A stretch of DNA of 64,000 nt, taken from contig OMZG01000006.1 in NCBI GenBank assembly GCA_900315505.1, positions 1 through 64,000 on the forward strand. Reading direction: 5' to 3'. This DNA comes from an uncultured Lachnospiraceae bacterium. Lineage in GTDB: Bacteria > Bacillota > Clostridia > Lachnospirales > Lachnospiraceae. Under the pieces are notes generated by a model that had not been told where the DNA came from, made no database searches, and was given only the letters and a program-made list of their open reading frames with translations. Within the stretch, counting starts at the first letter, position 1. Each line of letters opens with the position of its first letter. Shown one piece after another: positions 31,184 to 64,000 of the stretch. Made by a program: the position numbers and the translations under genes.

Positions 31184-31939
31184 GTGCCTGACGACAGTCA
31201 TTTCATCAAAGCAAACGGCTTCGTCATTTCATCGATGCCCATAGGCGAGACTGACAGGCGTATCGAAATCCTCACAAAAGAGCTCGGAAAAACATCTGCC
31301 TTCGTCCGTGGCGGTGCGAAGCCGAAGAGTCCGCTGCTTGCGGCGACGAATCCTTTTTTCTTCGGAGAATTCGAATTTTATGCCGGAACGAACAGCTACA
31401 CTCTGCGAAGCGCCAGGCAGAAGGCGAGATTCGATGAGATCCTGTCGGATCTCGATGATACCTACATGGGTACATATTTTCTTGAGATCGCACAGTTTTT
31501 TGGAAAAGAAGGAATCGATGAGAGTGAGAGACTGAACCTGCTGTACGCGGCACTGAAGGCACTGATCAGGCATGAACCGAAGCGGGAAATGGTTCGCATC
31601 GTGTACGAGCTTCGCACCATGATGGTCAATGGTGTTTACACTGACTCGTTCAGCTGTCATCACTGCGGTAAGCATCTCGATGTGAATGAGGTGAACTATT
31701 TCAGCGTGGGCGACTGCTTTTTCTATGACAGTGACTGCCGTTCGCAGATCAGAGGCACAGCGATGGAACTCACACCAACGGTGCTATATACGCTGCAGCT
31801 TATTTTTTCCCTGCCTATGGCGAGGATTTTTTCCTTCGAGGTAAAAGGACAGGTGCTTGCAGATCTCAAATATATAGCGAAAAGAATGAGAGCCGTATTT
31901 TTCGGGCATACCTTTCATTCTGAGAGGTTTCTGGACTGA
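31184..31939 (+). CDS. recO: DNA repair protein RecO
   Basis: Immediately downstream of era. N-terminal OB-fold-like region and a C-terminal Cys cluster (CHHCG...CF). The start codon may be GTG. Confidence 0.8.
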   Translation: MPDDSHFIKANGFVISSMPIGETDRRIEILTKELGKTSAFVRGGAKPKSPLLAATNPFFFGEFEFYAGTNSYTLRSARQKARFDEILSDLDDTYMGTYFLEIAQFFGKEGIDESERLNLLYAALKALIRHEPKREMVRIVYELRTMMVNGVYTDSFSCHHCGKHLDVNEVNYFSVGDCFFYDSDCRSQIRGTAMELTPTVLYTLQLIFSLPMARIFSFEVKGQVLADLKYIAKRMRAVFFGHTFHSERFLD

Positions 31940-48192: not shown

Positions 48193-50514
48193 ATGGACAC
48201 AATCGTGGTAAAGACAAATGTGATCAAGCGTAACGGGCGTGAGGTCCGCTTCGACGAGCAGAAGATCATCAATGCGATCATGGCAGCAAATAAGGAGGTG
48301 GAGGGAATCCACCAGCTGAATCATGCACAGGTTCAGGCAGTAGCCGATGGCATCTCGAAGCAGGTGGCGCAGTCGCCGCATGCCGTCAATGTCGAGGATA
48401 TCCAGGATCTCGTCGAGAAGGGCATCATGGAGATGAGATGCTATGAGGTCGCGCAGAAGTACGTCAGATACAGATACAAGCGTGAGCTCTCCCGTAAGTC
48501 CAATACCACGGATAATGGAATCCTGGCCCTTATTGATCAGGTCAATGAGGAGGTAAAGCAGGAGAATTCCAACAAGAACCCGGTCATCAATTCCACACAG
48601 CGTGACTATATGGCTGGTGAGGTATCAAAGGATCTCACGAACCGTGTACTGCTTCCTGAAGAGATAGTCAGGGCACATAAAGAGGGAATCATTCATTTCC
48701 ATGATGCCGATTATTTTGCACAGAGAGAGCACAACTGCGATCTGATCAATCTTGAGGATATGCTTCAGAATGGCACGGTCATTTCGGAGACCATGATCGA
48801 GAAGCCGAAGAGCTTCTATACAGCCTGCAATATCACGACACAGATCGTGGCTCAGGTCGCATCGAATCAGTACGGCGGCCAGTCATTCTCACTGGCACAT
48901 CTGGCACCATTCGTAGATGTCTCCAGACAGAAGATCAGGAAGCAGGTCATCGAGGAGAGAAAAGAGGTCGGCGATGATCTCGATGAAGAAAAGGTCATGA
49001 AGATCGTAGACCACAGGCTTCAGTCGGAGATCGAGTCAGGTATCCAGACTATCCAGTATCAGCTGGTGACACTCATGACGACAAATGGGCAGACACCGTT
49101 TGTCACAATGTTTATCTATCTCGATGAGGTGCCGGAGGGACAGACAAGGGATGACCTCGCCCGTCTTGCGAAGGAGGTATTCAGACAGAGAATTCAGGGT
49201 ATCAAGAATGAAAAGGGAGTCTGGGTCACACCTGCATTCCCGAAGATCATCTACACGCTTGATGCGGATAATATCGAGGAAGGCACACCGTACTATGATC
49301 TGACGAAGCTCGCGGCAGAATGCACAGCCAAGAGGATGGTTCCTGATTATATCTCGGCGAAGGTCATGAGAGAGCTGAAGGGCGATGTATATACCTGCAT
49401 GGGCTGCCGTTCATTCCTCACGCCTGATAATGAAGACAACGCAGAGGGCCTCTGCAATGCTGGCAATAAGAGCGGAGCACTTGATTATAAAGAAGGCGAG
49501 CACAAGTATTACGGCCGTTTCAATCAGGGTGTCGTGACGATCAACCTCGTTGATGTGGCCTGCTCAGCAGTCAAGGAGTCCAATGAAAAGGGAACAGACA
49601 GATTTGATGAGTTCTGGAAGATATTCGATGACAGACTCGAGCTCTGTCACAGGGCACTTCAGTGCAGACACAACCGTCTGCTTGGCACATCATCTGATGT
49701 AGCTCCGATCCTCTGGCAGCATGGAGCCCTCGCCCGCCTGAAGAAGGGTGAGAAGATCGACAAGCTTCTCTTCGGCAATTATTCTACGATCAGCCTCGGA
49801 TACTGTGGTATTTCAGAGATGACATATGAGATGATGGGAGTGAGCCATACAGATCCTAAGGGCAAGGAATTCGCTCTGAAGGTTATGCAGCATCTCAATG
49901 ACAAGTGCGCCGAGTGGAGAAAGGCAGAGAAGATCAGCTATTCACTCTATGGCACTCCGATGGAGTCGACTACATATAAGTTTGCAAAGTGCCTGCAGAA
50001 GAGATTTGGTATCATCCCTCATGTGACAGACAAGAACTATATCACCAATAGCTATCATGTCCATGTGACAGAGGAGATAGATGCGTTCAAGAAGCTGAAG
50101 TTCGAGAGCGAGTTCCAGAAGCTCTCACCAGGCGGAGCAATCAGCTATGTCGAGGTACCGAATCTCCAGACCAATGTACCAGCAGTCCTTTCGATCATGA
50201 AGTACATTTATGAGAATATCATGTATGCAGAGCTCAATACCAAGAGTGACTACTGCGAGGTGTGCGGATATGACGGCGAGATCCGTATCGTAGAGGATGA
50301 TAATGGCAAGCTGGTATGGGAGTGCCCGAAGTGCGGCAACCGTGACCAGAACAAGATGAGCGTAGCCCGTCGTACCTGTGGCTACATTGGCACCCAGTTC
50401 TGGAACCAGGGCCGTACGCAGGAGATCCGTGACCGTGTCCTCCATCTCTCAATCCCAGAATTCGAAGGCACAGAAGAGATGAACGTCAACGCCTCAGTAA
50501 GATTTTTAATGTAA
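48193..50514 (+). CDS. nrdD: Anaerobic ribonucleoside-triphosphate reductase
   Basis: ATP-cone N-terminus, C-terminal Cys4 (CEVCG...CPKCG) and glycyl-radical motif RRTCGYIGT. RBS GAAGGA precedes the ATG at 48193. Confidence 0.9.
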   Translation: MDTIVVKTNVIKRNGREVRFDEQKIINAIMAANKEVEGIHQLNHAQVQAVADGISKQVAQSPHAVNVEDIQDLVEKGIMEMRCYEVAQKYVRYRYKRELSRKSNTTDNGILALIDQVNEEVKQENSNKNPVINSTQRDYMAGEVSKDLTNRVLLPEEIVRAHKEGIIHFHDADYFAQREHNCDLINLEDMLQNGTVISETMIEKPKSFYTACNITTQIVAQVASNQYGGQSFSLAHLAPFVDVSRQKIRKQVIEERKEVGDDLDEEKVMKIVDHRLQSEIESGIQTIQYQLVTLMTTNGQTPFVTMFIYLDEVPEGQTRDDLARLAKEVFRQRIQGIKNEKGVWVTPAFPKIIYTLDADNIEEGTPYYDLTKLAAECTAKRMVPDYISAKVMRELKGDVYTCMGCRSFLTPDNEDNAEGLCNAGNKSGALDYKEGEHKYYGRFNQGVVTINLVDVACSAVKESNEKGTDRFDEFWKIFDDRLELCHRALQCRHNRLLGTSSDVAPILWQHGALARLKKGEKIDKLLFGNYSTISLGYCGISEMTYEMMGVSHTDPKGKEFALKVMQHLNDKCAEWRKAEKISYSLYGTPMESTTYKFAKCLQKRFGIIPHVTDKNYITNSYHVHVTEEIDAFKKLKFESEFQKLSPGGAISYVEVPNLQTNVPAVLSIMKYIYENIMYAELNTKSDYCEVCGYDGEIRIVEDDNGKLVWECPKCGNRDQNKMSVARRTCGYIGTQFWNQGRTQEIRDRVLHLSIPEFEGTEEMNVNASVRFLM

Positions 50515-50542
50515 CAGAAAAAAATTTTTTTGAGAAAAGTAC

Positions 50543-50680
50543 AAAAACGTACAAAATAAGTCGTGTAAACTACTTTTCAAAAAAGCTGTTGTTTTCTTAA
50601 AAACGTACATTATTGTTCGTGTAAACTACTTTTATAGCTACATGGATAATGTACGAAAAACGTACATTATTTTTCTGAGA
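50543..50680. repeat. Roughly 40-nt direct repeats plus a palindrome at the island boundary
   Basis: AAAAACGTACA(A/T)..TCGTGTAAACTACTTTT occurs two to three times. TAATGTACG-AAAAA-CGTACATTA palindrome at ~50645-50668. Confidence 0.5.
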
Positions 50681-50705
50681 GTATTCTGAAAAAAGAACGA
50701 CCAAT

Positions 50706-50750
50706 CCCTAAACAGGATGGCCGTTCTTTTTATTTCGCGTATAATGATGA
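50706..50750. terminator. Bidirectional intrinsic terminator
   Basis: AAAAAAGAACGACC..GGCCGTTCTTTTT. Serves the end of the minus-strand operon. Confidence 0.5.
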
Positions 50751-50753
50751 GGG

Positions 50754-53699
50754 TCAATAATAATGCCTCAGCTTAAGTCGCCGTCCTTTACAGAATGGGC
50801 AAGGCTCTCTATGACGTTTCTGGAACATGATTCGTTTGGCAGGAGACATTGGATAATGATGCCCTTGAGAACACTCCCACCAAACTTTTTTATTATAATT
50901 CTCATTTATCTGATCAGGGTCAGCCAGCAAGGAATTGTTCAGATACAACCATTCATCCATAAGATCAGGATGTTTGATCTTAAATGAATTAAATCCCGGA
51001 AGCACCTGTCTGCCGGTGCAGTAAGGACAGTCAGCTTCGCCCGAAACCATGTCTTTGATAGAAGCACTATAGCTACCATGACAGGTAGGACATATCCATT
51101 GAACGTATCTTGGTGAGCTGGAAAGCACATCATCAGTGGATATATCGTTCTCATCAGACCACAAGGAAGCGATTTCAGGATATTTGACTTTAAGGCTGTT
51201 AAATCCCGGAAGTACCTTTCTGTCATTGCAGTAAGGACAGTCAGCTTCGCCCGAAACCATGTCTTTGATAGAAGCACCATAAGTACCATGACAGGTAGGA
51301 CAAACCCATTTAACGTACTTTGCGGAGTCAGGAAAAACATCATCAGCAGATATGTCATTTTCATCAGACCACCAAGAAGCGATATCAGGGTACCTGACTT
51401 TAAGACTGTTGAATCCGGGTAGCACCTGTCTGTCATTACAGTAAGGACATTCAGCCTTGCCAGAGACAATATCCTGAATAGTACTGCTATATTTACCGCC
51501 ACAATCGGGACAGATCCAATAAAATCTGGATGCAGCATTGTAAGATATCTTATCTGGTTCTTTATCATTATCGGGATACCACATTGAAAGATACTGAGGA
51601 TAAACATCAGCAAAACTTTCTCCGGGTTTTACCCTGATGAGGGCACAGTATGGGCAACCCGTACGACCTTTTTTTAGTGCTATTATGATGCGGGCAGTCG
51701 AGGTCTTGTATCTTTTTTTACAAGTAGGGCAGATCCATGTCATAGGTATATATGAATCGTCGTAAGTACGTATTGAAAAAATGGTTCTGCCACTGGCCTG
51801 TTCATCACACATATCAACTAGCTGGGGATACTCCTCCGCGTACGGTATATCACGACTATGACCACTGCTGCACTTTTGACAGTCTATAAAGATAAGATCA
51901 TTTTTGTCTTTACCATAACGAAAACGACTTGCTATTGTTCCCCGCCATCTGTTACCACATTTTTTACACTTATAATTTACAATCTTTGCAGAATGAACAC
52001 CCTCGGAATAGATGTCAATATCAGGATTGTTATCAAAATCGAATAATGATGAAAATTCGGGTTTTACTGTAAGGACGTCATTTACTCCTTTTACTATTAC
52101 ATTGCCGACTTCACAGCATGGACAGTTCCTTGAAATAAGACGACTCTTAGCCGTTGCCTCCCATTCACGTCCGCAAACAGGACATTTCCAGAAAAAAGTT
52201 TCTCTGCTTCCGGCTTGTATAACACGTGGATCAATTCCGGCATTTTTTTCAAAATCCCAGAATCTGAGTAAATCTGGTATGTCGTATACTGATGCGATAC
52301 TATTATTCTTTTTCTGTTTTACAGTTGAACCTTTATTTATTCCGCAGTTGGGACATCCTGCAAATGATTTCTTTGTTTTGCCTCCGGTCATGCCAAAAAA
52401 CGTACTTTGCCACGCATATCCGCAGTGGGGACATTTCCAGTCGAACAGTGGAATCTTGGAGTTATAAGAAACTGAGTATGGATCCAGGCCGGTATTCTTA
52501 TCAAAATCATAATATTTTTTTGCCTGTGGGAATATGGTGAAAATATCATTGACACCTTTTTTTACGGAATAGTCTCTTTTTTCACCGCAATGAGGGCATC
52601 GGTCTGATGCATCAAGACGCACTGCTACACTTGTTTCCCATTCGTATCCACAGTCGGGACATTTCCAGTATACCCTTTTGCTAGAATTGGATGGGGTTTT
52701 TGCCGGATCCATTGTATTATGTTCTTTATCCCAGAATTTCATGAGCTTTGGCACTTCAGAAACCTTTTCCTTGTCTTCCGGCTTTATCTTTGAGGTATCC
52801 TTATGCTGACAGGGCATAAAGCGATATGTTCCGTCTTTTTTCTTATCAACACGTCTGCTCATTGCTTTACGGAATTTGCGACCGCACACGGGGCATTTCC
52901 AATTAACGACAGTTTTGGAGCCAACACCGATTTTCTTTATATCTATCCCTTCCGAAGCATTAGCGTCAAAGTCCCACTCGTTAAGTGCATCTGGCAGTAT
53001 GGTAGATATGTCATTGTATCCTGGTGATACACCATGTCCCTGATCACAGCATGGGCATTCTGCCTTTGCCTTGTATCTGCTATATACTGGTGCAGTCCAT
53101 TTAAAATGACATCTTTTACATTTCCAATGAACCGAAGGACGTTTCATCATGACAGATGTTGTATTGATATCTATCCCTTTATTTTCGTCGAAATCCCAGA
53201 AATCGACAAGTTTTTCTACTTCTGATATCATAGGGATATCTTGTCTTTTATGAGTACAGGAAACGAACAGATATGTTCCGTCCTTTTGCTTACGAATTCT
53301 ATTTCCAATCGCCATCCGAAACTCACGATGACAGACAGGACACTTCCAGTATGCCATCTTCTTGGAGCCTACGCCTTCATTCTCCAGGTGGATGTCTTCA
53401 ACGTCATTCTTTTCTTTGTCCCATTCATCCATAATGCCAGGTACAAGCGTAACTGCATCATTATGTCCTGACCATATGACTTTTTTCTGTTCGCAGCGGG
53501 GACACTCACCCTTTGAGATATAACGGTTATAAACCGACGCTTTCCACTCATACCCACATCTCTTACATTTCCAGGAGAGGAGTGGTTTCTGTGCAAGGGC
53601 TGATGTCATATTTATATCGATTCCTTTATTTTTCTCAAAGTTCCAGAATTTTGTAATCTTTGGAACCGATGATGCCGGAATGAATTCTTTCACTTTCAT
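50754..53699 (-). CDS. 981-aa protein of about 13 tandem four-Cys zinc-ribbon modules (DUF4379-like)
   Basis: Each module reads W(K/I)CxxC(G/H)..W...(11-14 aa)..CPxC, then a linker V.xGxND..T..P....EWD...N. The C-terminal three modules are almost identical at the DNA level. Confidence 0.7.
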   Translation of the reverse strand: MKVKEFIPASSVPKITKFWNFEKNKGIDINMTSALAQKPLLSWKCKRCGYEWKASVYNRYISKGECPRCEQKKVIWSGHNDAVTLVPGIMDEWDKEKNDVEDIHLENEGVGSKKMAYWKCPVCHREFRMAIGNRIRKQKDGTYLFVSCTHKRQDIPMISEVEKLVDFWDFDENKGIDINTTSVMMKRPSVHWKCKRCHFKWTAPVYSRYKAKAECPCCDQGHGVSPGYNDISTILPDALNEWDFDANASEGIDIKKIGVGSKTVVNWKCPVCGRKFRKAMSRRVDKKKDGTYRFMPCQHKDTSKIKPEDKEKVSEVPKLMKFWDKEHNTMDPAKTPSNSSKRVYWKCPDCGYEWETSVAVRLDASDRCPHCGEKRDYSVKKGVNDIFTIFPQAKKYYDFDKNTGLDPYSVSYNSKIPLFDWKCPHCGYAWQSTFFGMTGGKTKKSFAGCPNCGINKGSTVKQKKNNSIASVYDIPDLLRFWDFEKNAGIDPRVIQAGSRETFFWKCPVCGREWEATAKSRLISRNCPCCEVGNVIVKGVNDVLTVKPEFSSLFDFDNNPDIDIYSEGVHSAKIVNYKCKKCGNRWRGTIASRFRYGKDKNDLIFIDCQKCSSGHSRDIPYAEEYPQLVDMCDEQASGRTIFSIRTYDDSYIPMTWICPTCKKRYKTSTARIIIALKKGRTGCPYCALIRVKPGESFADVYPQYLSMWYPDNDKEPDKISYNAASRFYWICPDCGGKYSSTIQDIVSGKAECPYCNDRQVLPGFNSLKVRYPDIASWWSDENDISADDVFPDSAKYVKWVCPTCHGTYGASIKDMVSGEADCPYCNDRKVLPGFNSLKVKYPEIASLWSDENDISTDDVLSSSPRYVQWICPTCHGSYSASIKDMVSGEADCPYCTGRQVLPGFNSFKIKHPDLMDEWLYLNNSLLADPDQINENYNKKVWWECSQGHHYPMSPAKRIMFQKRHREPCPFCKGRRLKLRHYY

Positions 53700-53708
53700 A
53701 TATTACCC

Positions 53709-54464
53709 TCACTCGAATTTATCGAACAATCCCTTTACTACGTTGCTTTCGATTCCTGAAGAATCGTTTGCTGTTTCATCTTCCGTCTGAGAAGTGTCTG
53801 TACTATCATCAGACGTATCTATATCAGTATCAGGTCTTATGGCCCTGGCTTCGGCTTTTTCTGCATCAATATGTGTGGACACCGTACCTTTGAGCTCACC
53901 GTCTTCCTTTAACAGCTCATTAGCCATCTCTGGATATACATTATCTTCTATGAACTTTTTCATGTACTTATTCTTTTTACGGAGTTCGGTCAACTCTGTC
54001 TTTTGTTCTACATATTTCTGCCTGAGCTCAACGTTATCCTTTTTTATCTTATCCAGCTCGGAACTCATTTTATCGTGCTCTTCAACGAGTCTGCGGTTTT
54101 CCTGCTTTATCGTAATAGCTGACTCAGAAATATTTCTGTAATGGGTATCCAGTTCCGTCAGCGATCTTCTCATTGCATCACGGGACTGGTTGTTGTCGAT
54201 AAAGGCATCCACATCGAGCGTGGTATATGTTGTGATGTTTACCGATGCTTTTTCAATATTCCCCTTCAAAGAGGAGATATAACTCCTTGCGGCCGTATTT
54301 CTGCGAAGGGTTGTAACGGAATATCCTGTGAATCCGTTATCACTTACATACTGGGCAATCTGCGGAAACCTCAGCAGAGAGCCGTTTCCATGACACACGT
54401 CGTTATAATATTTTTTTATAAGATCAAGAAGGACGTCATCCTCGATCTGCTTTTTCCTTGCCAT
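53709..54464 (-). CDS. Coiled-coil protein with acidic Ser/Thr/Asp-rich tail
   Basis: 251 aa. Central heptad region ELDKIKKDNVELRQKYVEQKTELTELRKK. 9 nt upstream of the zinc-ribbon gene. Confidence 0.5.
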   Translation of the reverse strand: MARKKQIEDDVLLDLIKKYYNDVCHGNGSLLRFPQIAQYVSDNGFTGYSVTTLRRNTAARSYISSLKGNIEKASVNITTYTTLDVDAFIDNNQSRDAMRRSLTELDTHYRNISESAITIKQENRRLVEEHDKMSSELDKIKKDNVELRQKYVEQKTELTELRKKNKYMKKFIEDNVYPEMANELLKEDGELKGTVSTHIDAEKAEARAIRPDTDIDTSDDSTDTSQTEDETANDSSGIESNVVKGLFDKFE

Positions 54465-54502
54465 ATACCGCTCCTTTCATGACTCTCATAAGTCCCTGTC
54501 TC

Positions 54503-56179
54503 TTAACTTTCCTGTGTCTTTTTCCTGTCATACATTTTTTTCTGCATGAGATAATTTCTGTAAGACGTGGAACTTTCCTGGACTTTTAACATTGCTTCTC
54601 CTATGTCTTCAACAGCACCTTTGTCGTGCCTTACTCTGTCTACGGCTTCTACAAGAGCCGTACAGTCGTCTTTAAGATCTCTTCTGTATATATCATCACC
54701 CTCGAAGAAGGAGATTGACGGTCCTCTGTAGAACCGGCATGAAAGGCAGTAACCGATTTCACCGTTCTCGCCACATGCTTTACGGCAATCCGTTATACTG
54801 CCGCTCATATATGCACTGGAATAGCATGTGCCACCATCTGCAAGTGAAACGTGCTTTTCAGCGGGAGGAAGAAGACCCTGTACAGAGATCTGATACTTTT
54901 TATCGCTGCCTATGTATTTCCTGTATTCCCTGTATGTCTGACATTCTATCATGGTTTCAAGGTTACTGTAATAATGGGCTGCCATTTCTTCATTGGTATG
55001 CCCTGCAAGGAACATTGCCGTGGCCGGAGTGCCGCCTTCCTGCATGAGATTGATAAGTGCGACATGCCTTGCATCTCCGAGACGTATCCTCTGTATCTCC
55101 TTATCTTCCAGATGTCTTGTCTCCTCGTCTGAAATGATGCGGTATCCGTATATTCCACAAATAACCTCTGAATAAAAATATCTGAGTATCGTGACCATGT
55201 TCACATATGTGAGAAAACGGCTGTTGCTGTGTTTGCCCTGCTTCCATTTTCTGTAGTGCGGATCAGTGACAAAAAGCGTATCTATATCAGTGCTGTCATA
55301 TTTATCCGTTGCTTTCAGATATCCGTTGATCTCTTCATAAAGTTTGTCCGGTATACGAAAAGTAGTAGTAAAATAATCCGCGCTGATCTTATAGGACTTT
55401 TCACGCTTGCTGCCTTTAAGCCTGTTCCTGCGAAGCGTTATATAATGCTTTCCCTTCGCATCAGTTGAGAGACAGTCCCTTGTTGTGAGAAGGAATTCCC
55501 TCGGTCGTAGAGGTATACATCCTGTCAGGTTCCACCAGATATAAAGGGGCAGGTAGAACAGTCTGTCCTCGGTATTGAGATCATGACTCCAGTAATCGTT
55601 TATGATGTCATTAAATACAGCGTATGTATCGAAAGCTGCAAGAGATCGTGAACGCGGGCCTTTTTGCTTTGCAATCCTGGTCTCCGAACAGATATCGAGC
55701 ATATCCATAATGTCATTTGTAAAATCACCTGATGTATCAGGAAGCATGGAGAAAAAGTCTGAACACTGGGCAGGTCGTGTGAGTGTATAGCCTGCCTCTT
55801 CTGTGCCTATAGCCACCGGATCGTTGGCTGTTATATGCCTGAGATCGAGTATAACATTTTCCATTGATACAAGGGCTGTCTTACTGAAGAGCGTTGTAAT
55901 ATATGATTTAACCCTTGAAACGAATTCATCGAAGGACAGATTCAGTCCCTTGGCATAGTATTCATCATACTTTTCTCTGTCAAACGAGAAATGAAGTCCG
56001 ACATTTGAATACTCATCTGTTGTGTACCATACATCATCCTCAAATGATGAGCCTTCTTTTATGACACCGGCATCCCTGAACGCGTCAAAACGCTCCCTGG
56101 CAGCCGATACTGAAGTCTGATCAAGAAGTATGAAGTTAAGTGATGAGGAGAAAAGCTCCTCTGCCGTGGAAACATTCAT
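54503..56179 (-). CDS. Tyrosine recombinase, third of trio, with C-terminal Cys-rich extension
   Basis: Catalytic residues in order: LRPREF (R), ARHVALINLM (RH), AGHTNEEMAAHYY (H..Y). Extra Cys-rich segment CxxxxC...CxxC after the catalytic domain. Confidence 0.65.
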   Translation of the reverse strand: MNVSTAEELFSSSLNFILLDQTSVSAARERFDAFRDAGVIKEGSSFEDDVWYTTDEYSNVGLHFSFDREKYDEYYAKGLNLSFDEFVSRVKSYITTLFSKTALVSMENVILDLRHITANDPVAIGTEEAGYTLTRPAQCSDFFSMLPDTSGDFTNDIMDMLDICSETRIAKQKGPRSRSLAAFDTYAVFNDIINDYWSHDLNTEDRLFYLPLYIWWNLTGCIPLRPREFLLTTRDCLSTDAKGKHYITLRRNRLKGSKREKSYKISADYFTTTFRIPDKLYEEINGYLKATDKYDSTDIDTLFVTDPHYRKWKQGKHSNSRFLTYVNMVTILRYFYSEVICGIYGYRIISDEETRHLEDKEIQRIRLGDARHVALINLMQEGGTPATAMFLAGHTNEEMAAHYYSNLETMIECQTYREYRKYIGSDKKYQISVQGLLPPAEKHVSLADGGTCYSSAYMSGSITDCRKACGENGEIGYCLSCRFYRGPSISFFEGDDIYRRDLKDDCTALVEAVDRVRHDKGAVEDIGEAMLKVQESSTSYRNYLMQKKMYDRKKTQES

Positions 56180-58089
56180 GCGACCGCCTCCTTCAGATAA
56201 TTTTCGTACTGTTCATATGTCTTTTCACCATACTGATCCTTTATGCAGGTGAGCATCTCATCCAGTTTCGGGAGAAGTATTTCCTTTGCAATGCTACCGT
56301 ATTTCTGTTTTTCAAGCGGTGATGTGGCAGCATTATACAGCTTCTGTATGCGCTTTATTTCTGATATGACGAGAAGAAACGTCGATTTTGTGCTTATTTC
56401 ATACGGACACCCCACGCACTGCCTGCTGTCAGTGTACGGACAGATCTTTCCTATTGCTGATTTAAGGCATAGTGATTCTGCCTCTTTCGAGAAGGCCTGT
56501 CCTGAGCCTATGCGGTGCAGAGCTGTAAGTATATCGGTGTCGGAACCTGAGGCCTCTCTGACGGCCAGCACGGCTCTCTGGCGGCCTTCTTCTACAAGAG
56601 AGACGACCTCATCTGTTTCTTTCGGGGAAAGATTCAGAAGATGGTGGGCCTCCGTCTGCTCTTCAACGCTTAATGTTTTATAATCTTTCCCCTCGATCAT
56701 TTCAAGGAGCATCGACGAGACAAATGAACATACACCTCTTTCCAACAGCTCATAGGCAACGAAGTCGGGTGTAAGACCATCGAATTTTGCATCTTTCAGA
56801 TATTCCATTGTCGTATTTGCAAACTCTCCGAAACTTCCTTTGTGTGAACGGGCGAGAGAAGCAAATATATATCCTTTCACGCTTGCGGCATTGGCATCAA
56901 CGTCCCCGTCTTCCCGCAGTATCTCATCAGCGTGCATATATATGGACTGAAGATATGATTTTGTGGCGGATCTGGATCTGAAATCAGATTCAAGAAACAG
57001 GTTTCCGATATCCTCTCCCATGTATCTGGTTATCTGTTCATATGTCGAGATCTTTCTTATAATAGGAGCGTCAGGGTTGCCATCAATCTGTCTGTGGGCT
57101 TCTGCAAGGGCAAATAATATCCCGAAATGTGTCTCACATGAGTGCGGCACTGTAAATTTTACATATTCGTCATGTCCCCGTCCTGATGTCTTGTTTACCG
57201 TAAGAGGTAAAAGGCATAGCCTCTGTGTGATGGAACGCAGAACACTCTGTGCGTCGTCGTCCGTAAACTCTCCGTTGCGTACTTTCCGCAATACTTCATC
57301 CGGTGGATATGGAAGATCGGGATGATATATCCGTTCAAGATCGGTCAGCCGCAGGGAGCAGATGAAGTTGATCGACAGATAAAGCCATGTATCCGTATAG
57401 TCTGTTGAATCAGCAGCTTTTGCATACATGTCGTTTTCTTCGATATAGTCCTCATTCAGCAGATAGTAGAGCAGTTCCAGATATTCATCCATTTCATAGG
57501 CTTCGTTCTGGATATCCATAGTGTATCGGTTTCCCATGACATAATCACGATTGTAATTTGTCTTCGTTCTCTGCCTGAGCCAGGAGATAAAGAAAGTGAG
57601 ATCATCTCCGAATGCCTTTGTGAGTTCATCCGCTGCTGCTTTCACAATGCTTTCCATATCAGTATCTGTATAGAACATCATCTCCCTGTCAAGATGGTAC
57701 AGGAGAAAATCGGTGATATACATTACCGATTCATCAGGAAGCTCTACGGCCTTTGCAAATTCTTCAAGATAGCGGGCAGTAGAGGGAAAACGTACAGACA
57801 GATCTCCTGAAAGAGTATCTTCGCTGAAATCCGATGATAAAAATGATGACAGATTATCCTTCAGCAGTTCTGCATCATCTTCGGATAAGGTAAAACCGCC
57901 ATCTGCATTACCGTCTTTTACCGGCTTTATCCCAAACCATCCGTTGCTTTCAAGAAAGAGCACGGTATCGTCCATTGATTTGTTATATGGATTGCTGCCG
58001 TTTAATGCCTCCGTTACGATCTTATTAAGGCTTTCCATCACCATGCCCCCTTTCGGCTGCCCACATATGATAGTCGAACAGCTCATCAT
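56176..58089 (-). CDS. Putative divergent tyrosine recombinase (Tn554 TnpB-like size), second of trio
   Basis: 637 aa. Overlaps neighbours by 4 nt and 65 nt. Candidate box-I SLRLTDLE and ARSHKGS..EY. The assignment is weak. Confidence 0.4.
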   Translation of the reverse strand: MMSCSTIICGQPKGGMVMESLNKIVTEALNGSNPYNKSMDDTVLFLESNGWFGIKPVKDGNADGGFTLSEDDAELLKDNLSSFLSSDFSEDTLSGDLSVRFPSTARYLEEFAKAVELPDESVMYITDFLLYHLDREMMFYTDTDMESIVKAAADELTKAFGDDLTFFISWLRQRTKTNYNRDYVMGNRYTMDIQNEAYEMDEYLELLYYLLNEDYIEENDMYAKAADSTDYTDTWLYLSINFICSLRLTDLERIYHPDLPYPPDEVLRKVRNGEFTDDDAQSVLRSITQRLCLLPLTVNKTSGRGHDEYVKFTVPHSCETHFGILFALAEAHRQIDGNPDAPIIRKISTYEQITRYMGEDIGNLFLESDFRSRSATKSYLQSIYMHADEILREDGDVDANAASVKGYIFASLARSHKGSFGEFANTTMEYLKDAKFDGLTPDFVAYELLERGVCSFVSSMLLEMIEGKDYKTLSVEEQTEAHHLLNLSPKETDEVVSLVEEGRQRAVLAVREASGSDTDILTALHRIGSGQAFSKEAESLCLKSAIGKICPYTDSRQCVGCPYEISTKSTFLLVISEIKRIQKLYNAATSPLEKQKYGSIAKEILLPKLDEMLTCIKDQYGEKTYEQYENYLKEAVA

Positions 58090-59389
58090 TTATCTTTGTA
58101 TATTTTCTTTCAAGCTCTCCCTTGTTTTTCAGGTATGTGAGCGAGCTGTCAGGCGAAGTGTCTCCCCTGAAATGCATGAGTGTTCCGATATCGGTAATGC
58201 CTGAAAGAACGAGCTGTACCGTGAACCAGTGTCTGAAAATATGTGGTGATATGTTATGCTCCAGTAGTATTTTCCCATATGTGACAAGTTCAGGATCATC
58301 ACTGGATAGATAGAGCGGTATCATTTCGTCTTTTATGATGTCCTGAAAACGCTGATAATATGACTTGTATGTCATCGCCATGTGTCTGCTATTGACTGTG
58401 AACGGGCCATAATCGGTCTCATATGGTATGTTGTTCATGTATTCGATGTAGATATTATATGCCTTTATAAAAGCATCACGGAAGATGTCAGGTATATCCT
58501 GCATACGCTCTTTCTTGATCTTTCCGACAGGGACGGCATCGCTCCTGAGATTGTATTCATGATTGAGATCGATACGGATCTTTGTGACTGTCAAACACTT
58601 GGTATAGCCGGTTTCGATACAGTCGATGAGAATTCCTGGTCCTAACGGACTGTCCGTGCGGCGTACATTACAGGCTTCAGACGGACGAAGACCGCAGAAT
58701 GCCGAGAGTATCACAAGTCCGAGCATGTCCTTGTGATGCTGGAGGATATGGTCGAAAAGAAGCCTAAAAGCCTTGTCCGGCATATCCCTGAATATGGCAT
58801 GGGTGCTTCCTGTATATTTCACATCAAAGACGGGAACCTGTGTATCTATGACCTTTCCATGCTTGTCACGCTTCTTGACTGTCCTGTACAGATCTTTCAC
58901 CCTGATGCTGCACCTGGTCTTTCTGTCTTCTATCAGGAGCTGTAGAAAGTCCAGAACAGATGATACGGCTCTCTCGACAGTGGCTTTGGCGCGGGATGTA
59001 TCATCGTCGTCATCAGGAAGAGTGCAGGTGCCGTAAGCATTGAGATAATCTTTTACGATATCGACTGTGAGCTTGTCAAGAGACCTGATCCCGCGTTCAA
59101 AAAATGCATAGTTAAGTAAAGGTGTGACAAATGCAAATCTGCTGTTGCCATCATCCTGTATGCTGCGTACTTTTGAATGGGTTGATCTCACATATTTGTG
59201 AAAATCTGTGAATCTGATGGTTCCGTCACTGTATTCGAGGACTATGAACTGTCGCGGTATTATAAGGTTATCCGATGTAACGTAATGGTGTTTATAAACC
59301 TTGAACCTTACCGGTACAGGCGTATCAGATATGGATATGCTGCCAGTTGTATCCATAAGCGTCTCCTCTCCGGGAGGCGGATGTATCAT
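58025..59389 (-). CDS. Tyrosine recombinase/integrase, first of trio
   Basis: GLRPSEACNV (box I Arg), HIFRHWF (HxxRH) and LTYL (Tyr). RBS AAAGGA. Confidence 0.7.
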   Translation of the reverse strand: MIHPPPGEETLMDTTGSISISDTPVPVRFKVYKHHYVTSDNLIIPRQFIVLEYSDGTIRFTDFHKYVRSTHSKVRSIQDDGNSRFAFVTPLLNYAFFERGIRSLDKLTVDIVKDYLNAYGTCTLPDDDDDTSRAKATVERAVSSVLDFLQLLIEDRKTRCSIRVKDLYRTVKKRDKHGKVIDTQVPVFDVKYTGSTHAIFRDMPDKAFRLLFDHILQHHKDMLGLVILSAFCGLRPSEACNVRRTDSPLGPGILIDCIETGYTKCLTVTKIRIDLNHEYNLRSDAVPVGKIKKERMQDIPDIFRDAFIKAYNIYIEYMNNIPYETDYGPFTVNSRHMAMTYKSYYQRFQDIIKDEMIPLYLSSDDPELVTYGKILLEHNISPHIFRHWFTVQLVLSGITDIGTLMHFRGDTSPDSSLTYLKNKGELERKYTKINDELFDYHMWAAERGHGDGKP

Positions 59390-59512
59390 CGGCAGTCCTT
59401 TGATTTAAATGATTTATGATAAATAATCCCTTGACTTATAGCAGCCAAAGTGTTATATTTACCTTAATTGAAAAGAACTTGATGATATGGGCGCCGACCC
59501 GTGTCATACTTA

Positions 59513-59557
59513 AAGCATCAGTTACCGCCAAGTAAAGCTGGTGCTTTTTTGTTGCTT
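59513..59557 (+). terminator. Possible stem-loop terminator
   Basis: AGCATCAG..CTGGTGCT followed by T6. Confidence 0.3.
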
Positions 59558-59693
59558 GTATCTCACATTATACATCTTACTTCTGAAGTTTTCAAGGTCA
59601 TTCGACAATAATATTATCTCATTTTTATCTATTGTTATTGTTTTTTATATAATATATGCTATAATGTATAGACATAGGAGGAATACCACGCTT

Positions 59694-62600
59694 ATGGCAA
59701 GGACATTCAACGAAGATACACGGGTGAAGATACCGGCAACACTCCAGTTCCTGCGGATTGGATACAACTATCAGTCAATGCAGGATTCTGATATAGATTT
59801 CGAGACAAAGATATTTGTGAACAGGTTCAGACCGGCTGTAGAAAAGATCAACGGCAGGTCATTCTCTGATGAAGAAATTGAGTTTCTGCTTACGGAAATC
59901 CGCACTCTCATAAAGAGCAATGACATGGGTCATGCCTTTTATAACAGGCTCATCAGCACCACTGATGATGTAAAGCTAGTAGACTGGGATGATATTCAGA
60001 AGAATGACTTCGCTGTCGTTGATGAGCTTCCATTTACCGTAGAAAAAGGCACAGAAGAAGGCTCTTTCAGACCTGATATCAACATACTGATCAATGGGAT
60101 GCCGTTGGCCTTTCTTGAAGTCAAAAAGCCTAATAATGAAGGCACCATTCAGGCAGAGTTTGACCGTATGCTCAACAGAAGGCTTTCAAATAATGCTTAT
60201 CGAAAGTTCTTCAATCTCATACAGTTCGTATCCTTTTCCAATAATATGGAGTATGAGAACAGTGATGCAGATGCCGTAGAGCTTGTAAAGGCAGGTTCTT
60301 TCTATACGACCCCGAACGGCCAGCAGACCAGCTTCTCTTTCTTCCGTGAGGACGAAAAAGGATATATAGAGGGGTATCAATATACATCATTAAGTGATGA
60401 CCTATGCAGGAAGGTAATAAAGGATCTCGGTTATAACCCGGCTGTATTTGACACAGATGAATTTCAGACTGCAAATGTTACAGATTCTCCATGTAACCGC
60501 TTCATCACATCAATGTATGATAAGGAGCGGTTCCTTTTCATACTGAAATACGGGATACTATATATAAAAGGCAGGATACCGGAAAAGCATATCATGAGGT
60601 ATCCACAATTCTTTGCTACCAGAGCCATTATAAAAAGACTTGAAAGCGGCGGTAAGCGTGGTATCATATGGCATACACAGGGTTCGGGAAAGACGGAGCT
60701 TGCCTGCTATGCAAACAGGATAATACGGGATTACTATGCAAAGAAGAATGTCGTAACACGTTTCTTCTTTGTGGTAGACCGCCTTGAACTGCTAAGACAA
60801 GACAACAGTGAATTTTCATCAAGGCATTTTTCTGTCACTAACTGCACCAAGAAGTCCGGTTCGGGCGGCTTTGACGAAGAGCTTGCCCGCACGATGCCTG
60901 TCATAAAGTCCGACGACATTGGTGAATTCGTTGTCGTGAACATCCAGAAGTTTGAAGATGCCATTCCTAAAGCCAGAAACGAGTATGATACCAATGTGCA
61001 GAGGATATTCTTCATAGACGAGGCACACCGTTCATACAAGATGAACGGGCAGTATTTCAAGAACCTTATTCTCTGTGACAGAAACGCTGTATTCATCGCC
61101 CTTACGGGGACACCGCTGCTGACAAAGAAAGAGCGCAGCAATCTGAAGTTCGGTGACTACATACATAAGTATTTTTATGACAAGAGCATCGCTGACGGCT
61201 ATACACTCCGAATCAAGAAGGAAAAGATCAAGTCAGTAGTAAAGAAGGATATCAAGGAAGATCTCGAGCTGCAGTCAGATGAAATAGACTTTGATTCCGC
61301 AACCGTGTACGAATCTGATGCCTTTGTAGGCTCTCTCTGCAAGTATATAGAAAAGGACTTCAAGAATTTCCGTATCACGAATGGCGACCAGTCAATAGGC
61401 GGTATGGTCGTCTGCAAGTCAAATGAACAGGCAAAAAAAATCTGCCAGTGGTTTGTTGAAAACAGCAGACTTTCGGCAGGCCTTGTTATTTCTGACAGCG
61501 ATCCGAAGCAGGATGAGATAAACAAGAACAACCAGCTTGACTTTAAAAACGAGGGTCATCCTGATCTGCTCATAGTCCATTATATGCTTACGACAGGATA
61601 TGATGTAAAGCGCCTGAAGAAAATGTACCTGCTTCGTGGGCCGCATGCTCAGAACCTGCTCCAGACCATAAGCCGTGTCAACAGGCCGTACAAAGCTCCG
61701 AACGGAAAGATATACAAGTTCGGTTATATCACCGATTTTGTGGATATAGACAAAGAGTATGACCGTACTGTTGATGACTACCTCAAAGAACTCGAGAAGG
61801 ATATAAATAACGAGGATGACGATGAGGAAGGACACAACAGCCTTAGCGGACTTCTGGTAGACGTTGACAACATAAGTAGGACATATGAACAGGCGAAGTC
61901 TGAGTTTGAAAAGATAGCTCCGTCTGAAGATCTTGAACAGTTCAGCAGTAATCTTACAATGTTCAACAAAGACACTCTCCACCGCATTAAACGGCTTCTG
62001 AACACTATGCAGGACTGTTATGTGGAGTTCCTTCTGTCTCAGGCAGACGAGCTTGCAGATAAGGTTGATATCGATTTGATAAAGAGAAAAATCCGGTCTG
62101 TACAGGAACGTATAGATTTTGTAAATCTTAAGGAACAACCTGTGGAGATGATGGATATCATTTCTGACAAGGAAATTGTAGAGATATTCTATGAGTTTCT
62201 GAAGACATCTGTCGATATTATAGACCTGTCAAAGTACACCGATGGAGATGAAAGCGGCTCATATAAGAAATTTACTGAGACGATGAAAAAAGTACAGTCT
62301 GAGATAAAGAAGAACCGCAACAAGGATGACATAAGGATAATACATCTAAATGAACTTCTGAAGCAGCTATTCAACAATCTTGATATAACAGACGTGTCTG
62401 ATCTCGATAGCCTTTCTGAGAAGATGAAGAAGATTCTCGAAGAAGCAGAAGCTATAAACCGAGAGAATGACCGGCTGGCTGCTATATATGACGATAATTT
62501 TGCTATGGTCAAGAGTTATCAGGATGCTGTAGCCAAACGTCCGGACCTTGATAATAAGGACATCGAGCAGATGATGCTTGCTATTTATGCTGAGATCAAA

Positions 62601-62777
62601 GATGTCATAGGCATTGATACCCTAGCCATCCAGGGACGGGAAGGTTTTATAGATGAGACAAAGAAGAAAGTAATAAAGAAGCTCCTGAAGTCCGGTTTGT
62701 ACCAGAAACTGCAGCTTAAAGACTGGATAGATCCGCTTCTTTCTGAGATGTATACAAACTTACAGAACTTTAATTAA
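59694..62777 (+). CDS. hsdR: Type I restriction enzyme R subunit
   Basis: HSDR_N PD-(D/E)XK (FLEVKKP), helicase Walker A (QGSGKTE) and DEAH (FFIDEAHRS). RBS AGGAGGA precedes the ATG at 59694. Confidence 0.9.
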   Translation: MARTFNEDTRVKIPATLQFLRIGYNYQSMQDSDIDFETKIFVNRFRPAVEKINGRSFSDEEIEFLLTEIRTLIKSNDMGHAFYNRLISTTDDVKLVDWDDIQKNDFAVVDELPFTVEKGTEEGSFRPDINILINGMPLAFLEVKKPNNEGTIQAEFDRMLNRRLSNNAYRKFFNLIQFVSFSNNMEYENSDADAVELVKAGSFYTTPNGQQTSFSFFREDEKGYIEGYQYTSLSDDLCRKVIKDLGYNPAVFDTDEFQTANVTDSPCNRFITSMYDKERFLFILKYGILYIKGRIPEKHIMRYPQFFATRAIIKRLESGGKRGIIWHTQGSGKTELACYANRIIRDYYAKKNVVTRFFFVVDRLELLRQDNSEFSSRHFSVTNCTKKSGSGGFDEELARTMPVIKSDDIGEFVVVNIQKFEDAIPKARNEYDTNVQRIFFIDEAHRSYKMNGQYFKNLILCDRNAVFIALTGTPLLTKKERSNLKFGDYIHKYFYDKSIADGYTLRIKKEKIKSVVKKDIKEDLELQSDEIDFDSATVYESDAFVGSLCKYIEKDFKNFRITNGDQSIGGMVVCKSNEQAKKICQWFVENSRLSAGLVISDSDPKQDEINKNNQLDFKNEGHPDLLIVHYMLTTGYDVKRLKKMYLLRGPHAQNLLQTISRVNRPYKAPNGKIYKFGYITDFVDIDKEYDRTVDDYLKELEKDINNEDDDEEGHNSLSGLLVDVDNISRTYEQAKSEFEKIAPSEDLEQFSSNLTMFNKDTLHRIKRLLNTMQDCYVEFLLSQADELADKVDIDLIKRKIRSVQERIDFVNLKEQPVEMMDIISDKEIVEIFYEFLKTSVDIIDLSKYTDGDESGSYKKFTETMKKVQSEIKKNRNKDDIRIIHLNELLKQLFNNLDITDVSDLDSLSEKMKKILEEAEAINRENDRLAAIYDDNFAMVKSYQDAVAKRPDLDNKDIEQMMLAIYAEIKDVIGIDTLAIQGREGFIDETKKKVIKKLLKSGLYQKLQLKDWIDPLLSEMYTNLQNFN

Positions 62778-62788
62778 GGAAACAAAAC

Positions 62789-63010
62789 ATGAGAAGGGTT
62801 ATATGCTATGGGCCTTTAGGAGAAACAACTATTTATAATAGCATTGCAGAGGCAGCAAGAAAACTCAATGCATCAGCATCCAGTATAGAGGAAAGTTGTC
62901 GTAGACCAAAATACAGTTACAATGTATATGGCGACTCATGGTCTGATACTCTTAACGAAATGAGTCGATATGCATACAATTTCCAGTATTACGATGGTAA
63001 AGGAGAATGA
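62789..63010 (+). CDS. Small hypothetical protein, possibly a DNA-binding HTH protein
   Basis: 73 aa. The ..SIAEAARKL..S.SSI pattern resembles NUMOD/HTH modules. Confidence 0.35.
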   Translation: MRRVICYGPLGETTIYNSIAEAARKLNASASSIEESCRRPKYSYNVYGDSWSDTLNEMSRYAYNFQYYDGKGE

Positions 63011-63011
63011 A

Positions 63012-64000
63012 AATGCCAGATTATTATGATCTTGAAACAAAGATTGAGCAAATGATAGATGAGCTTCAGGGACTGTGCAGTACAAACGGACTATCAAATA
63101 CTGCTTCTGAGGAAGTCGTAGTTACCTCAGTATTCCTTTATAAATTCCTTAATGACAAGTTCATGTACAATCTGCGGAAGTTTGCCGAAGAGATGGAAGT
63201 TGGTCCTGAGGAAGTGCTTGCCAACAAGAACAGCTATCTGGACGGTTTCTATGATGCATACCCACAGGATGTAGCTTTCAGAAAAGAAGATACCATAGAA
63301 GAACTTTCAAACCAGTCGCTTAAGCCTGGATTTGGAAAGATATTCGACGATACCCTTGAAAGGATATCAAACTATCCATCGAATGAGAAATTCAAGGTAG
63401 AGACAGATGAAGGTACAAAGGAGCCTCTGTTTACACGTATCACCGAGACGGTTGAAAAGGGTAAGCGTGATGCCTTCGCACAGAACATTTTCTCAATAAT
63501 TACCAGGGACAAGTTCGACTTCTCACCTGCATACTCTACGAATTTCGACTTCTATTCTAGCATTTTTGAGCACTTGATAAAGAACTACAATGTGGCAAGC
63601 GGCACTTATGCCGAGTATTTTACGCCACAGGCGGTTTCTTCCATTATCAGCAAGTGTCTGGTACATATATCTGACATCGATGACAATAAGCTGTATGACA
63701 TATACGATGCAGCGGCAGGCAGTGGTTCCCTTGTTCTGCACCTGGCTAACGAGCTAGGAAAAGGCAAGTTCGGAAACAAGGCAAGAATATATACCCAGGA
63801 TATATCACAGAAGTCATCACGATTCCTTCGTATAAACATGATGCTGAATGGGCTTACAGAGTCTCTTGGCAATATTGTCCGCGGTGACACTCTGCTCACT
63901 CCAGCTCAGTATAATGTAAAAGGTGACCCTGCGTCAGGATACAGAAAGTTCGACTTCGCAACAATAAATCCGCCTTTCAAAATGGATTTCTCATCATCAC
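63012..64000 (+). CDS. hsdM: Type I restriction-modification N6-adenine methyltransferase M subunit, partial (runs off window)
   Basis: AEYFTPQAV, DAAAGSGSL (motif I) and NPPF (motif IV). No stop before 64000. Confidence 0.85.

Follow-up and report, generated by a model that had tools for sequence, protein, structure and literature searches.

A mobile element with a probable five-gene recombination module and exchangeable defence cargo between nrdD and nrdG in an uncultured Lachnospiraceae bacterium

Background

The first 64,000 nucleotides of contig OMZG01000006.1 (GenBank assembly GCA_900315505.1), from an uncultured Lachnospiraceae bacterium, raise the question of what a compact minus-strand operon of five genes, here called A to E, is doing between nrdD (PF13597) and a type I restriction-modification (R-M) locus that begins with hsdR. 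We refer to this whole 64,000-nucleotide stretch as the window. An initial annotation, made from the letters alone, suggested that the operon could be a mobile segment of ~9 kb, akin to Tn554-type or recombinase-in-trio (RIT) elements, in which three tandem tyrosine recombinases carry a coiled-coil protein and a zinc-ribbon protein as cargo. The kind of element, mobile and Tn554-like, was recognised correctly there, but its parts were not. We consider it probable that A to E make up the recombination module of a ~19.3-kb site-specific integrative island (50511 to ~69795) with swappable defence cargo.

Multi-recombinase integrative elements, such as Tn554, SEs and GInts, are a small and poorly understood group, considered to be narrow in taxonomic range. 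The family to which this element belongs brings an SE-like four-gene logic, together with a fifth, obligatory gene, to Lachnospiraceae, Oscillospiraceae, oral streptococci, Enterococcus and lactobacilli. R-M and abortive-infection (Abi) cassettes are moved by way of a defined expression slot, which bears on the turnover of phage defence in human-associated Firmicutes. In the sources compared here, B, D and E are at present annotated as 'hypothetical' or 'zinc-ribbon domain-containing'. A full-text literature search, with incomplete coverage and hence no proof of novelty, found no published description of the family. Since relatives occur in genetically tractable streptococci, 20-40 bp from difSL-xerS, both how the element works and what the zinc-ribbon array does are open to direct test.

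Results

A 19.3-kb insertion separates nrdD from nrdG

Contigs of the same species were gathered through the exact product of a host gene upstream of nrdD, and longer contigs through hsdR. In five of them (L008, L009, L012, L013 and L015) nrdD is followed directly by nrdG at a distance of 179 bp, in agreement with the initial placement of the operon where nrdG normally sits; a search for nrdD-nrdG junctions in relatives, proposed at the same time, thus yielded empty sites within the species itself. The site is occupied in L010 and L016-L019. The window is 99.96% identical to L017 over 14.3 kb, and comparison of empty and occupied sites defines the insert as L017 818-20102, 19,285 bp, equivalent to window positions 50511 to ~69795. 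The far end therefore lies outside the window, and the ~9-kb extent first proposed was too short. The G+C content falls from ~0.48 to ~0.42 at 50.5 kb and is low from there to the window end.

Reading rightward from nrdD, the insert consists of a left terminus, the genes E-D-C-B-A, a 283-bp promoter region, hsdR, a 73-aa open reading frame (ORF), hsdM, hsdS, a right arm and a right terminus. The right arm encodes, in order, a 60-aa ribbon-helix-helix (RHH) protein, a resolvase, a PIF1-type helicase and a second full-length nrdG, and the host nrdG lies beyond the right terminus. The element's own nrdG (176 aa, Fer4_12/radical SAM) is situated just inside the right end, at L017 19242-19772 (window-equivalent ~68935-69465), and is 71% identical to the host gene at the nucleotide level. 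It probably compensates for the parting of nrdG from nrdD. At the opposite end, window positions 50494-50517 hold an altered nrdD terminus: NrdD ends in …SVRFLM* (798 aa) in the window, as against …SVK* (795 aa) in the empty sites and L017, and in the window variant the stop codon (50512-50514) falls within the element terminus.

The spacer of the empty sites (L009 14337-14515; L008 14337-14727) contains a GC-rich long hairpin of ~150 bp that resembles miniature inverted-repeat transposable elements or repetitive extragenic palindromes, and one empty-site strain has two hairpin units in its spacer.

Spread between hosts and exchange of cargo

The same block follows the resident nrdD of another host, L001, where the module is 98-100% identical to that of the window and nrdD is ~83% identical. 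Near-identity with L001 and with L099, which come from different hosts, starts exactly at the GTAACAG beside the nrdD stop codon. Together with the empty nrdD-nrdG sites of the same species, this near-identical copy bears out the claim of a mobile segment; the element is real and mobile. L099, a contig of a Joint Genome Institute (JGI) metagenome, represents a third host, with an nrdD that is 72-74% identical. It holds a solo left end of ~165 bp straight after the nrdD stop, with no A-E genes (L099 4540-4702, minus strand, matching window 50511-50675), probably what is left of an earlier, since decayed insertion at this target.

Between L001/L002 and the window element, both arms are 96-100% identical (96-98% in the far arm with its RHH, resolvase and PIF1 genes), and the genes between them are different. 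In the window, the cargo cassette lies on the plus strand at 59673-64000 and continues to ~66130 beyond it, with hsdR at 59694-62777, the 73-aa ORF at 62789-63010, which has a NUMOD1-like (nuclease-associated DNA-binding) motif, hsdM from 63013 onwards, and hsdS outside the window. In L001/L002 the 6.5 kb between the arms encode instead Vsr, a 266-aa protein, an SNF2 helicase, a GHKL ATPase, an HNH protein and a C5 methylase (Dcm). The edges of the swapped segment are sharp and fall at window 59672/59673, just past AT-rich promoter-like boxes, and at the RHH start codon. The type I R-M system, initially seen as a mere neighbour of the operon, is thus exchangeable cargo of the element, carried in an expression slot between two conserved arms. 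Across the family, the cargo consists mostly of R-M and Abi genes, and variability is extreme upstream of A, where 235 ORFs fall into 145 clusters.

Termini, sub-terminal repeats and the junction hexamer

The left terminus (50511-50531) consists of GTAACAG followed by A7T7, and the right end, beyond the window at ~69778-69795, reads …ACGAAAAAATGTAGTTAC. Set against the right end, the left end, GTAACAGAAAAAAATTTTTTT, shares the GTAAC/GTTAC tips and the A-tract and differs by a 5-bp indel, so the two ends form imperfect inverted repeats. Inside the left terminus, sub-terminal repeats occupy 50543-50675 and comprise two 35-nt direct repeats (50543-50577 and 50599-50633) and a partial third, 56-57 nt apart. 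The decamer CGTACATTAT is found in the window left end at 50604(+), 50646(-) and 50661(+). With at most one mismatch it has 11 matches in L017, of which nine lie in the two terminal regions, as compared with 1.6 expected over the whole locus. The sub-terminal repeats are putative binding sites of a recombinase or an accessory protein. Relatives have clusters of GTACA-type repeats with ~55-bp spacing at both ends; the streptococcal elements end in …A7T5-7nGTTA(C/T), the reverse complement of the window left terminus, preceded by AAAGTACATT repeats at ~55-bp spacing.

Just beyond the left terminus lies a 6-bp coupling (crossover-flank) hexamer, TTTAAT at 50505-50510 in the window. This left-junction hexamer varies within the species: it is GATTTA in L017 and TTTAAT in L016, L019, L010 and the window, as against GATCTA in the empty site, and L010 and the window have a further small change beside it. 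At the right junction, TTTAAT is found in L017 and L018. Coupling or attachment (att) sequences of 6-7 bp are reported to behave alike in Tn554-type elements, SEs and GInts (PMC10214605, PMC5385486, PMC12486829), and the hexamer variants suggest repeated excision and re-integration in natural populations.

A conserved five-gene block across the Bacillota

Close homologues of B number more than 280 and its cluster representatives 709, and none of them is annotated. A scan of species-representative genomes gave 76 Bacillota loci from Lachnospiraceae, Oscillospiraceae, many oral Streptococcus, Enterococcus avium, Secundilactobacillus (Lactobacillaceae), Thomasclavelia and others. All five genes form one conserved block in ~70 of these loci, and virtually every locus of sufficient length shows B with A-, C-, D- and E-like neighbours arranged in the same way. 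Three distant E-like proteins, 25-30% identical to E, are likewise each last in the same five-gene order. It follows from this conserved order that D and E are core genes of the module and not cargo, as had been supposed at first.

Past the E-side end, 41 loci have XerS as the next gene (NF003462, 398-557 bits, cutoff 267), five Lachnospiraceae loci have a Xer-like gene, five loci have HU and a few have nrdD. In streptococci, enterococci and Secundilactobacillus (L038, L058, L060, L054 and others) an intact difSL-like site lies 20-40 bp past the E-side terminus and is followed by xerS. A search of phages with B and a scan of viral contigs with the left terminus gave no match. Among 72,556 plasmids searched with B and C, the only full relative is on Paenibacillus lautus plasmid pAZOPL1 (L104, NZ_CP032413.1 107275-113279). 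It has an A-like/B-like/C-like block and a 196-aa gene, with no zinc-ribbon gene; YolD-like genes and a DNA polymerase IV gene border it on both sides. The E-bearing module is therefore a subfamily of a wider group.

Recombinases A and C and protein B

The ORF list of the window confirms five minus-strand ORFs where they were first drawn: A (454 aa, 58025-59389), B (637 aa, 56176-58089), C (558 aa, 54503-56179), D (251 aa, 53709-54464) and E (981 aa, 50754-53699). The tight spacing noted earlier is also correct for the 4-nt overlap of B and C, the 38-nt gap between C and D and the 9-nt gap between D and E. The 65-nt overlap of A and B, on the other hand, exists only if B is taken at its longest: both public gene calls and the alignment of the family place the probable B start ~16-17 codons further in, at ~58041, which leaves an overlap of 14 nt.

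Two of the three proteins first read as tandem tyrosine recombinases are supported as such. PF00589 is matched by A in 20 of 25 family members, and the family profile of A matches XerA with R235, H383-x-x-R386-H387 and Y419 in register, so that A is, by its motifs, a divergent tyrosine recombinase. For C, PF00589 is matched in 14 of 24 family members, and the residues R225, R371-H372, H394 and Y403 are present, those from R371 onwards aligning with box II of A. The homologue of C on pAZOPL1 carries a tyrosine recombinase annotation and matches with 99.8% probability; the C profile found no recombinase in the PDB. Judged by these residues, C is a large, divergent tyrosine recombinase.

B, an acidic, Tfp-like protein with no recognisable domain, could not be demonstrated to be a third. 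PF00589 was found in none of 39 family members, the B profile had no match among PDB sequences, and hhalign of B against A and against C gave nothing significant. The AlphaFold model of B is mediocre (pLDDT 68.9, below 50 in the putative catalytic region). Foldseek comparison of this model with the PDB put λ integrase and Cre on top, with E>0.3, a weak likeness to the integrase core-binding fold; the model would be compatible with a possible core-binding-like fold. Both B (C541, C550, C558, C561) and C (C452, C465, C478, C481) have an invariant C-terminal four-cysteine cluster, which suggests a zinc-binding appendage on both.

Other members of the B family have additional domains. In representative P0199 the B N-terminus is fused to nine DUF4379 modules. 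P0228, P0234, P0236, P0251, P0283 and P0305 are among many B-family members of ~1000 aa with an N-terminal extension of ~380 aa, sometimes with an excisionase-type HTH_17. An A-like nature of this extension was considered and rejected on comparison.

Proteins D and E

The coiled coil and acidic tail first seen in D are present. The protein has a basic N-terminal helical domain resembling a helix-turn-helix (HTH), an 80-residue coiled coil, a conserved YVYPEIANELL motif and the acidic tail, and its structure model likewise shows the HTH-like part as a bundle and the coiled coil as a helix of 80 residues, before the acidic tail. D had no significant family or fold match; in PADLOC it gave only a weak SduA/DUF4263 match over the coiled coil (E=3e-4), and E gave none.

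E was correctly described as made of zinc ribbons only. It comprises 13 DUF4379 (treble-clef zinc-ribbon) modules (PF14311, E=1e-131), with a pI of 8.8 and no catalytic domain. It is present after D in ~65 loci with a length of 617-1457 aa, and the module number ranges from nine to about 20 across the family. DUF4379/CapR-like modules in arrays of three to five are fused to Vsr/EDxHD homing endonucleases and are taken as DNA-binding units (PMC12350094, PMC5513546). By analogy, E is probably DNA-binding.

The body of E stands out from the remainder of the window element and its L001 counterpart. Window 53540-51150 and L001 14545-16870 are 80-86% identical and differ by a 70-aa module indel, as against 98-100% identity in the remainder of the elements. 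Synonymous divergence (dS) is 0.65 in the E body, 0-0.04 in A-C and 0-0.07 in A-D, and dN/dS of E against the L001 allele is 0.11. Low dN/dS combined with high dS in the E body points to a constrained functional gene with a recombinant allele at its centre; by its pattern of substitution, the E body is a recombinant mosaic under purifying selection. Hypervariability of E through diversifying selection was considered and rejected on account of the dN/dS of 0.11.

Discussion

Proposed mechanism

Sequence comparison establishes the insertion polymorphism, the near-identity across hosts, the termini, the hexamer variants, the conservation of the module, the catalytic motifs of A and C and the exchange of cargo; the catalytic roles, and those of B, D and E, are inferred. 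We propose that A and C would cut and rejoin DNA at a 6-bp crossover beside the GTAAC/GTTAC termini. B would be a recombinase-related, probably non-catalytic partner, like Tfp of the SEs, and D would serve as accessory or directionality factor in the manner of Srap, GinD or TnpC. E would bind the clustered sub-terminal repeats and/or the target and thereby build or direct the recombination complex. The element targets intergenic DNA by conserved genes, namely the 3' end of nrdD here, difSL-xerS in streptococci and HU in other Lachnospiraceae, and the expression slot between its conserved arms holds exchangeable defence cassettes, here hsdRMS. Excision would yield the attS junction …GTAGTTAC-N6-GTAACAG…, and the circle junction would read …AAATGTAGTTAC-N6-GTAACAGAAAAAAATT….

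A more specific and much more tentative idea is that E is a modular, array-type DNA reader, in which nine to 20 modules might read the sub-terminal repeats and/or the target and so assemble or direct integration by nrdD, HU or difSL-xerS. If this were true, site-specific recombination would gain a new class of accessory or targeting protein in E, and the family would be an undescribed, phylum-wide vehicle that swaps defence cassettes in gut and oral Bacillota.

Comparison with known elements

Multi-recombinase elements of the Tn554 type are indeed the closest analogues of this element, as initially suggested; among these, SEs appear to match most closely by gene order, degenerate middle protein, coiled-coil accessory, terminal repeats, 6-bp junction and site specificity, and the element also recalls Tn554 and the GInts. 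In SEs (intA, tfp, intB, srap) an ordinary tyrosine recombinase is followed by a recombinase-related protein without a recognisable catalytic domain, a large tyrosine recombinase and a small coiled-coil accessory protein, an order that A-D appear to share, and the layout described for Srap and GinD, an HTH-like domain with a long coiled coil, is like that of D. SEs likewise have the module at one element end with the cargo beside it, few specific targets and no transfer genes. Imperfect terminal inverted repeats, of 13-19 bp in SEs, are present here as well, as is a 6-bp flank that differs and moves between junctions. In contrast to SEs, whose tfp-srap blocks are reported from Gammaproteobacteria only and whose cargo is antimicrobial resistance genes, the present element has a Bacillota host, defence cargo, a fifth core gene, E, and sub-terminal repeat clusters. 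D has double the size implied for proteins of the Srap type, and no sequence similarity was detected.

The Tn554 family (PMC12486829, Tn553/'Tn552-II') shares with our element a Firmicutes host, two tyrosine recombinases (one of them large), a small accessory protein and site-specific insertion. Its 6-7-bp att sequence, 'brought in' at the other junction, has a counterpart in the hexamer, and the second nrdG has a parallel in a staphylococcal Tn554-type transposon with an internal 'target-gene-like' gene (PMC12486829). The differences lie in the module, with tnpA (~360 aa), tnpB (~630 aa) and tnpC (~125 aa) reading inward at the left end in Tn554, as against five genes of 454, 637, 558, 251 and 981 aa here, in the 637-aa middle protein B without a PF00589 signal, and in cargo that is defence and not resistance. 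On the side of likeness to the Tn554 recombinases, A and C offer only the generic PF00589 signal.

GInts (ginABCD; Bardaji 2017, PMC5385486) resemble the element in several ways. A four-gene recombination operon lies at one end, followed by variable cargo and, at the far end, a short AT-rich stretch; they insert site-specifically next to a conserved gene, their att variants arise by 6-nt staggered exchange, and they spread between species. They differ in that the degenerate recombinase is the third gene (ginC, without the first Arg), whereas here the protein with no recognisable domain is the second (B) and C keeps R225, and in their small helix-loop-helix protein GinD, Proteobacterial hosts and lack of an E-like gene. 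Their borders are 10-11-nt imperfect direct repeats, as against a 6-bp hexamer here, and again no sequence similarity was detected.

Membership in the RIT elements, which the initial annotation also entertained, does not hold. RITs have three full-length tyrosine recombinases in tandem, long inverted repeats and usually no cargo; here B lacks an integrase signal across its 39 members, the cargo and arm region is 10 kb long and the terminal repeats are short. IMEX enter dif through host XerC/D/S without a recombinase of their own, whereas the present element encodes its own, the difSL-like site is intact 20-40 bp past the streptococcal terminus and the window copy sits at nrdD, not at dif. As for E, the same treble-clef module of ~56-60 aa occurs in tandem in the DUF4379/CapR-like arrays of Vsr/EDxHD homing endonucleases and giant-virus 'restriction endonucleases' (PMC12350094, PMC5513546). 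These combine three to five modules with a nuclease domain, whereas E has 13 modules, no other domain and a place inside a recombinase operon. Among catalogued PADLOC defence proteins, there is likewise no counterpart of E and only the weak SduA/DUF4263 match of D.

Alternative explanations

Several observations weigh against the reading of the five genes as the module of a mobile, SE-like or Tn554-like island. The whole 179-bp spacer of the empty sites is absent from the occupied site and has been replaced, not merely interrupted, so the insertion was not a clean one. The left-terminus scan, which found one further locus, a solo end, revealed no circular junction or excision product, and no transfer functions were identified in the element. 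An NCBIfam scan of A-E at E<=0.1 found no gamma-mobile-trio (GmtX/Y/Z-type) model; such models were in the scanned set, with GmtY among the weak matches of Xer-like neighbours. Nor did tblastn of B and C against the 72,556 plasmids yield a staphylococcal or Tn554-annotated match. With both the Gmt and the Tn554-type matches absent, kinship with Tn554, SEs and GInts rests on architecture and behaviour, not on any homology demonstrated so far. The operon, moreover, reads outward to its end, the reverse of all three. Finally, the role of E is purely one that we infer, and the relative on the Paenibacillus plasmid does without E.

This last point also favours the most serious alternative, that D and E, or E alone, are a fixed passenger (for exclusion, anti-defence, addiction or defence) riding with a recombinase core of A, B and C. 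None of Tn554, the SEs and the GInts needs an E-like protein, D has its weak match to SduA/DUF4263, and the E body is a deeply diverged allele in an otherwise identical pair of elements, as is sometimes seen in specificity or immunity genes. We nevertheless regard a passenger as unlikely. E directly follows or overlaps D, in the same operon and order, at ~65 loci and in all three distant relatives, and it always adjoins the repeat-bearing element end. Its dN/dS gives no arms-race signature, PADLOC knows no match for it, and its module type is associated with DNA recognition.

That the insert is instead a composite, in which a five-gene transposon of 9 kb and an independent resolvase/PIF1/R-M island landed side by side, seems very improbable. 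Conservation with the sister element does break sharply at 59672 and the RHH start codon, and the resolvase/PIF1 arm is absent from the streptococcal relatives. Yet terminal repeat clusters and GTAAC/GTTAC termini occur at the two outer ends only, with none at the inner borders, and both arms are found together around different cassettes in two hosts. In the complete relatives L057 and L092 as well, repeat clusters bracket the cargo at the outer ends only, and it is the whole 19.3 kb that is absent from the empty sites. Still more remote, and largely refuted already by the evidence presented here, is a domesticated, immobile recombinase system (for example, one for R-M phase variation) or a prophage or satellite remnant. 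The nearby type I R-M and resolvase genes and the missing excision product would suit such a system; presence/absence within the species, ~99% identity across hosts with an 83% identical flanking gene, defined termini, the lack of phage or viral-contig matches and the absence of inverted hsdS repeats from the part read do not. An integrative island with A-E as its recombination module accordingly remains the reading that we prefer.

Other features of the locus

Two plus-strand ORFs elsewhere in the window, at 27176-30121 and 31184-31939, match E and D exactly in length (981 and 251 aa, respectively). Kinship of the first with E was rejected, as BLASTP of this 981-aa ORF found no similarity, and the equal lengths are apparently a coincidence. 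Downstream of E, a minus-strand hairpin with a T-run at 50690-50731 (inverted repeat I16) provides a terminator for the A-E operon. Upstream of A, the conserved regulatory arm of 283 bp spans 59390-59672, where conservation with the sister element stops. The best promoter-like site for the A-E operon is found in this arm on the minus strand, at 59595-59567, and its AT-rich TATAAT boxes point outward, to the cargo.

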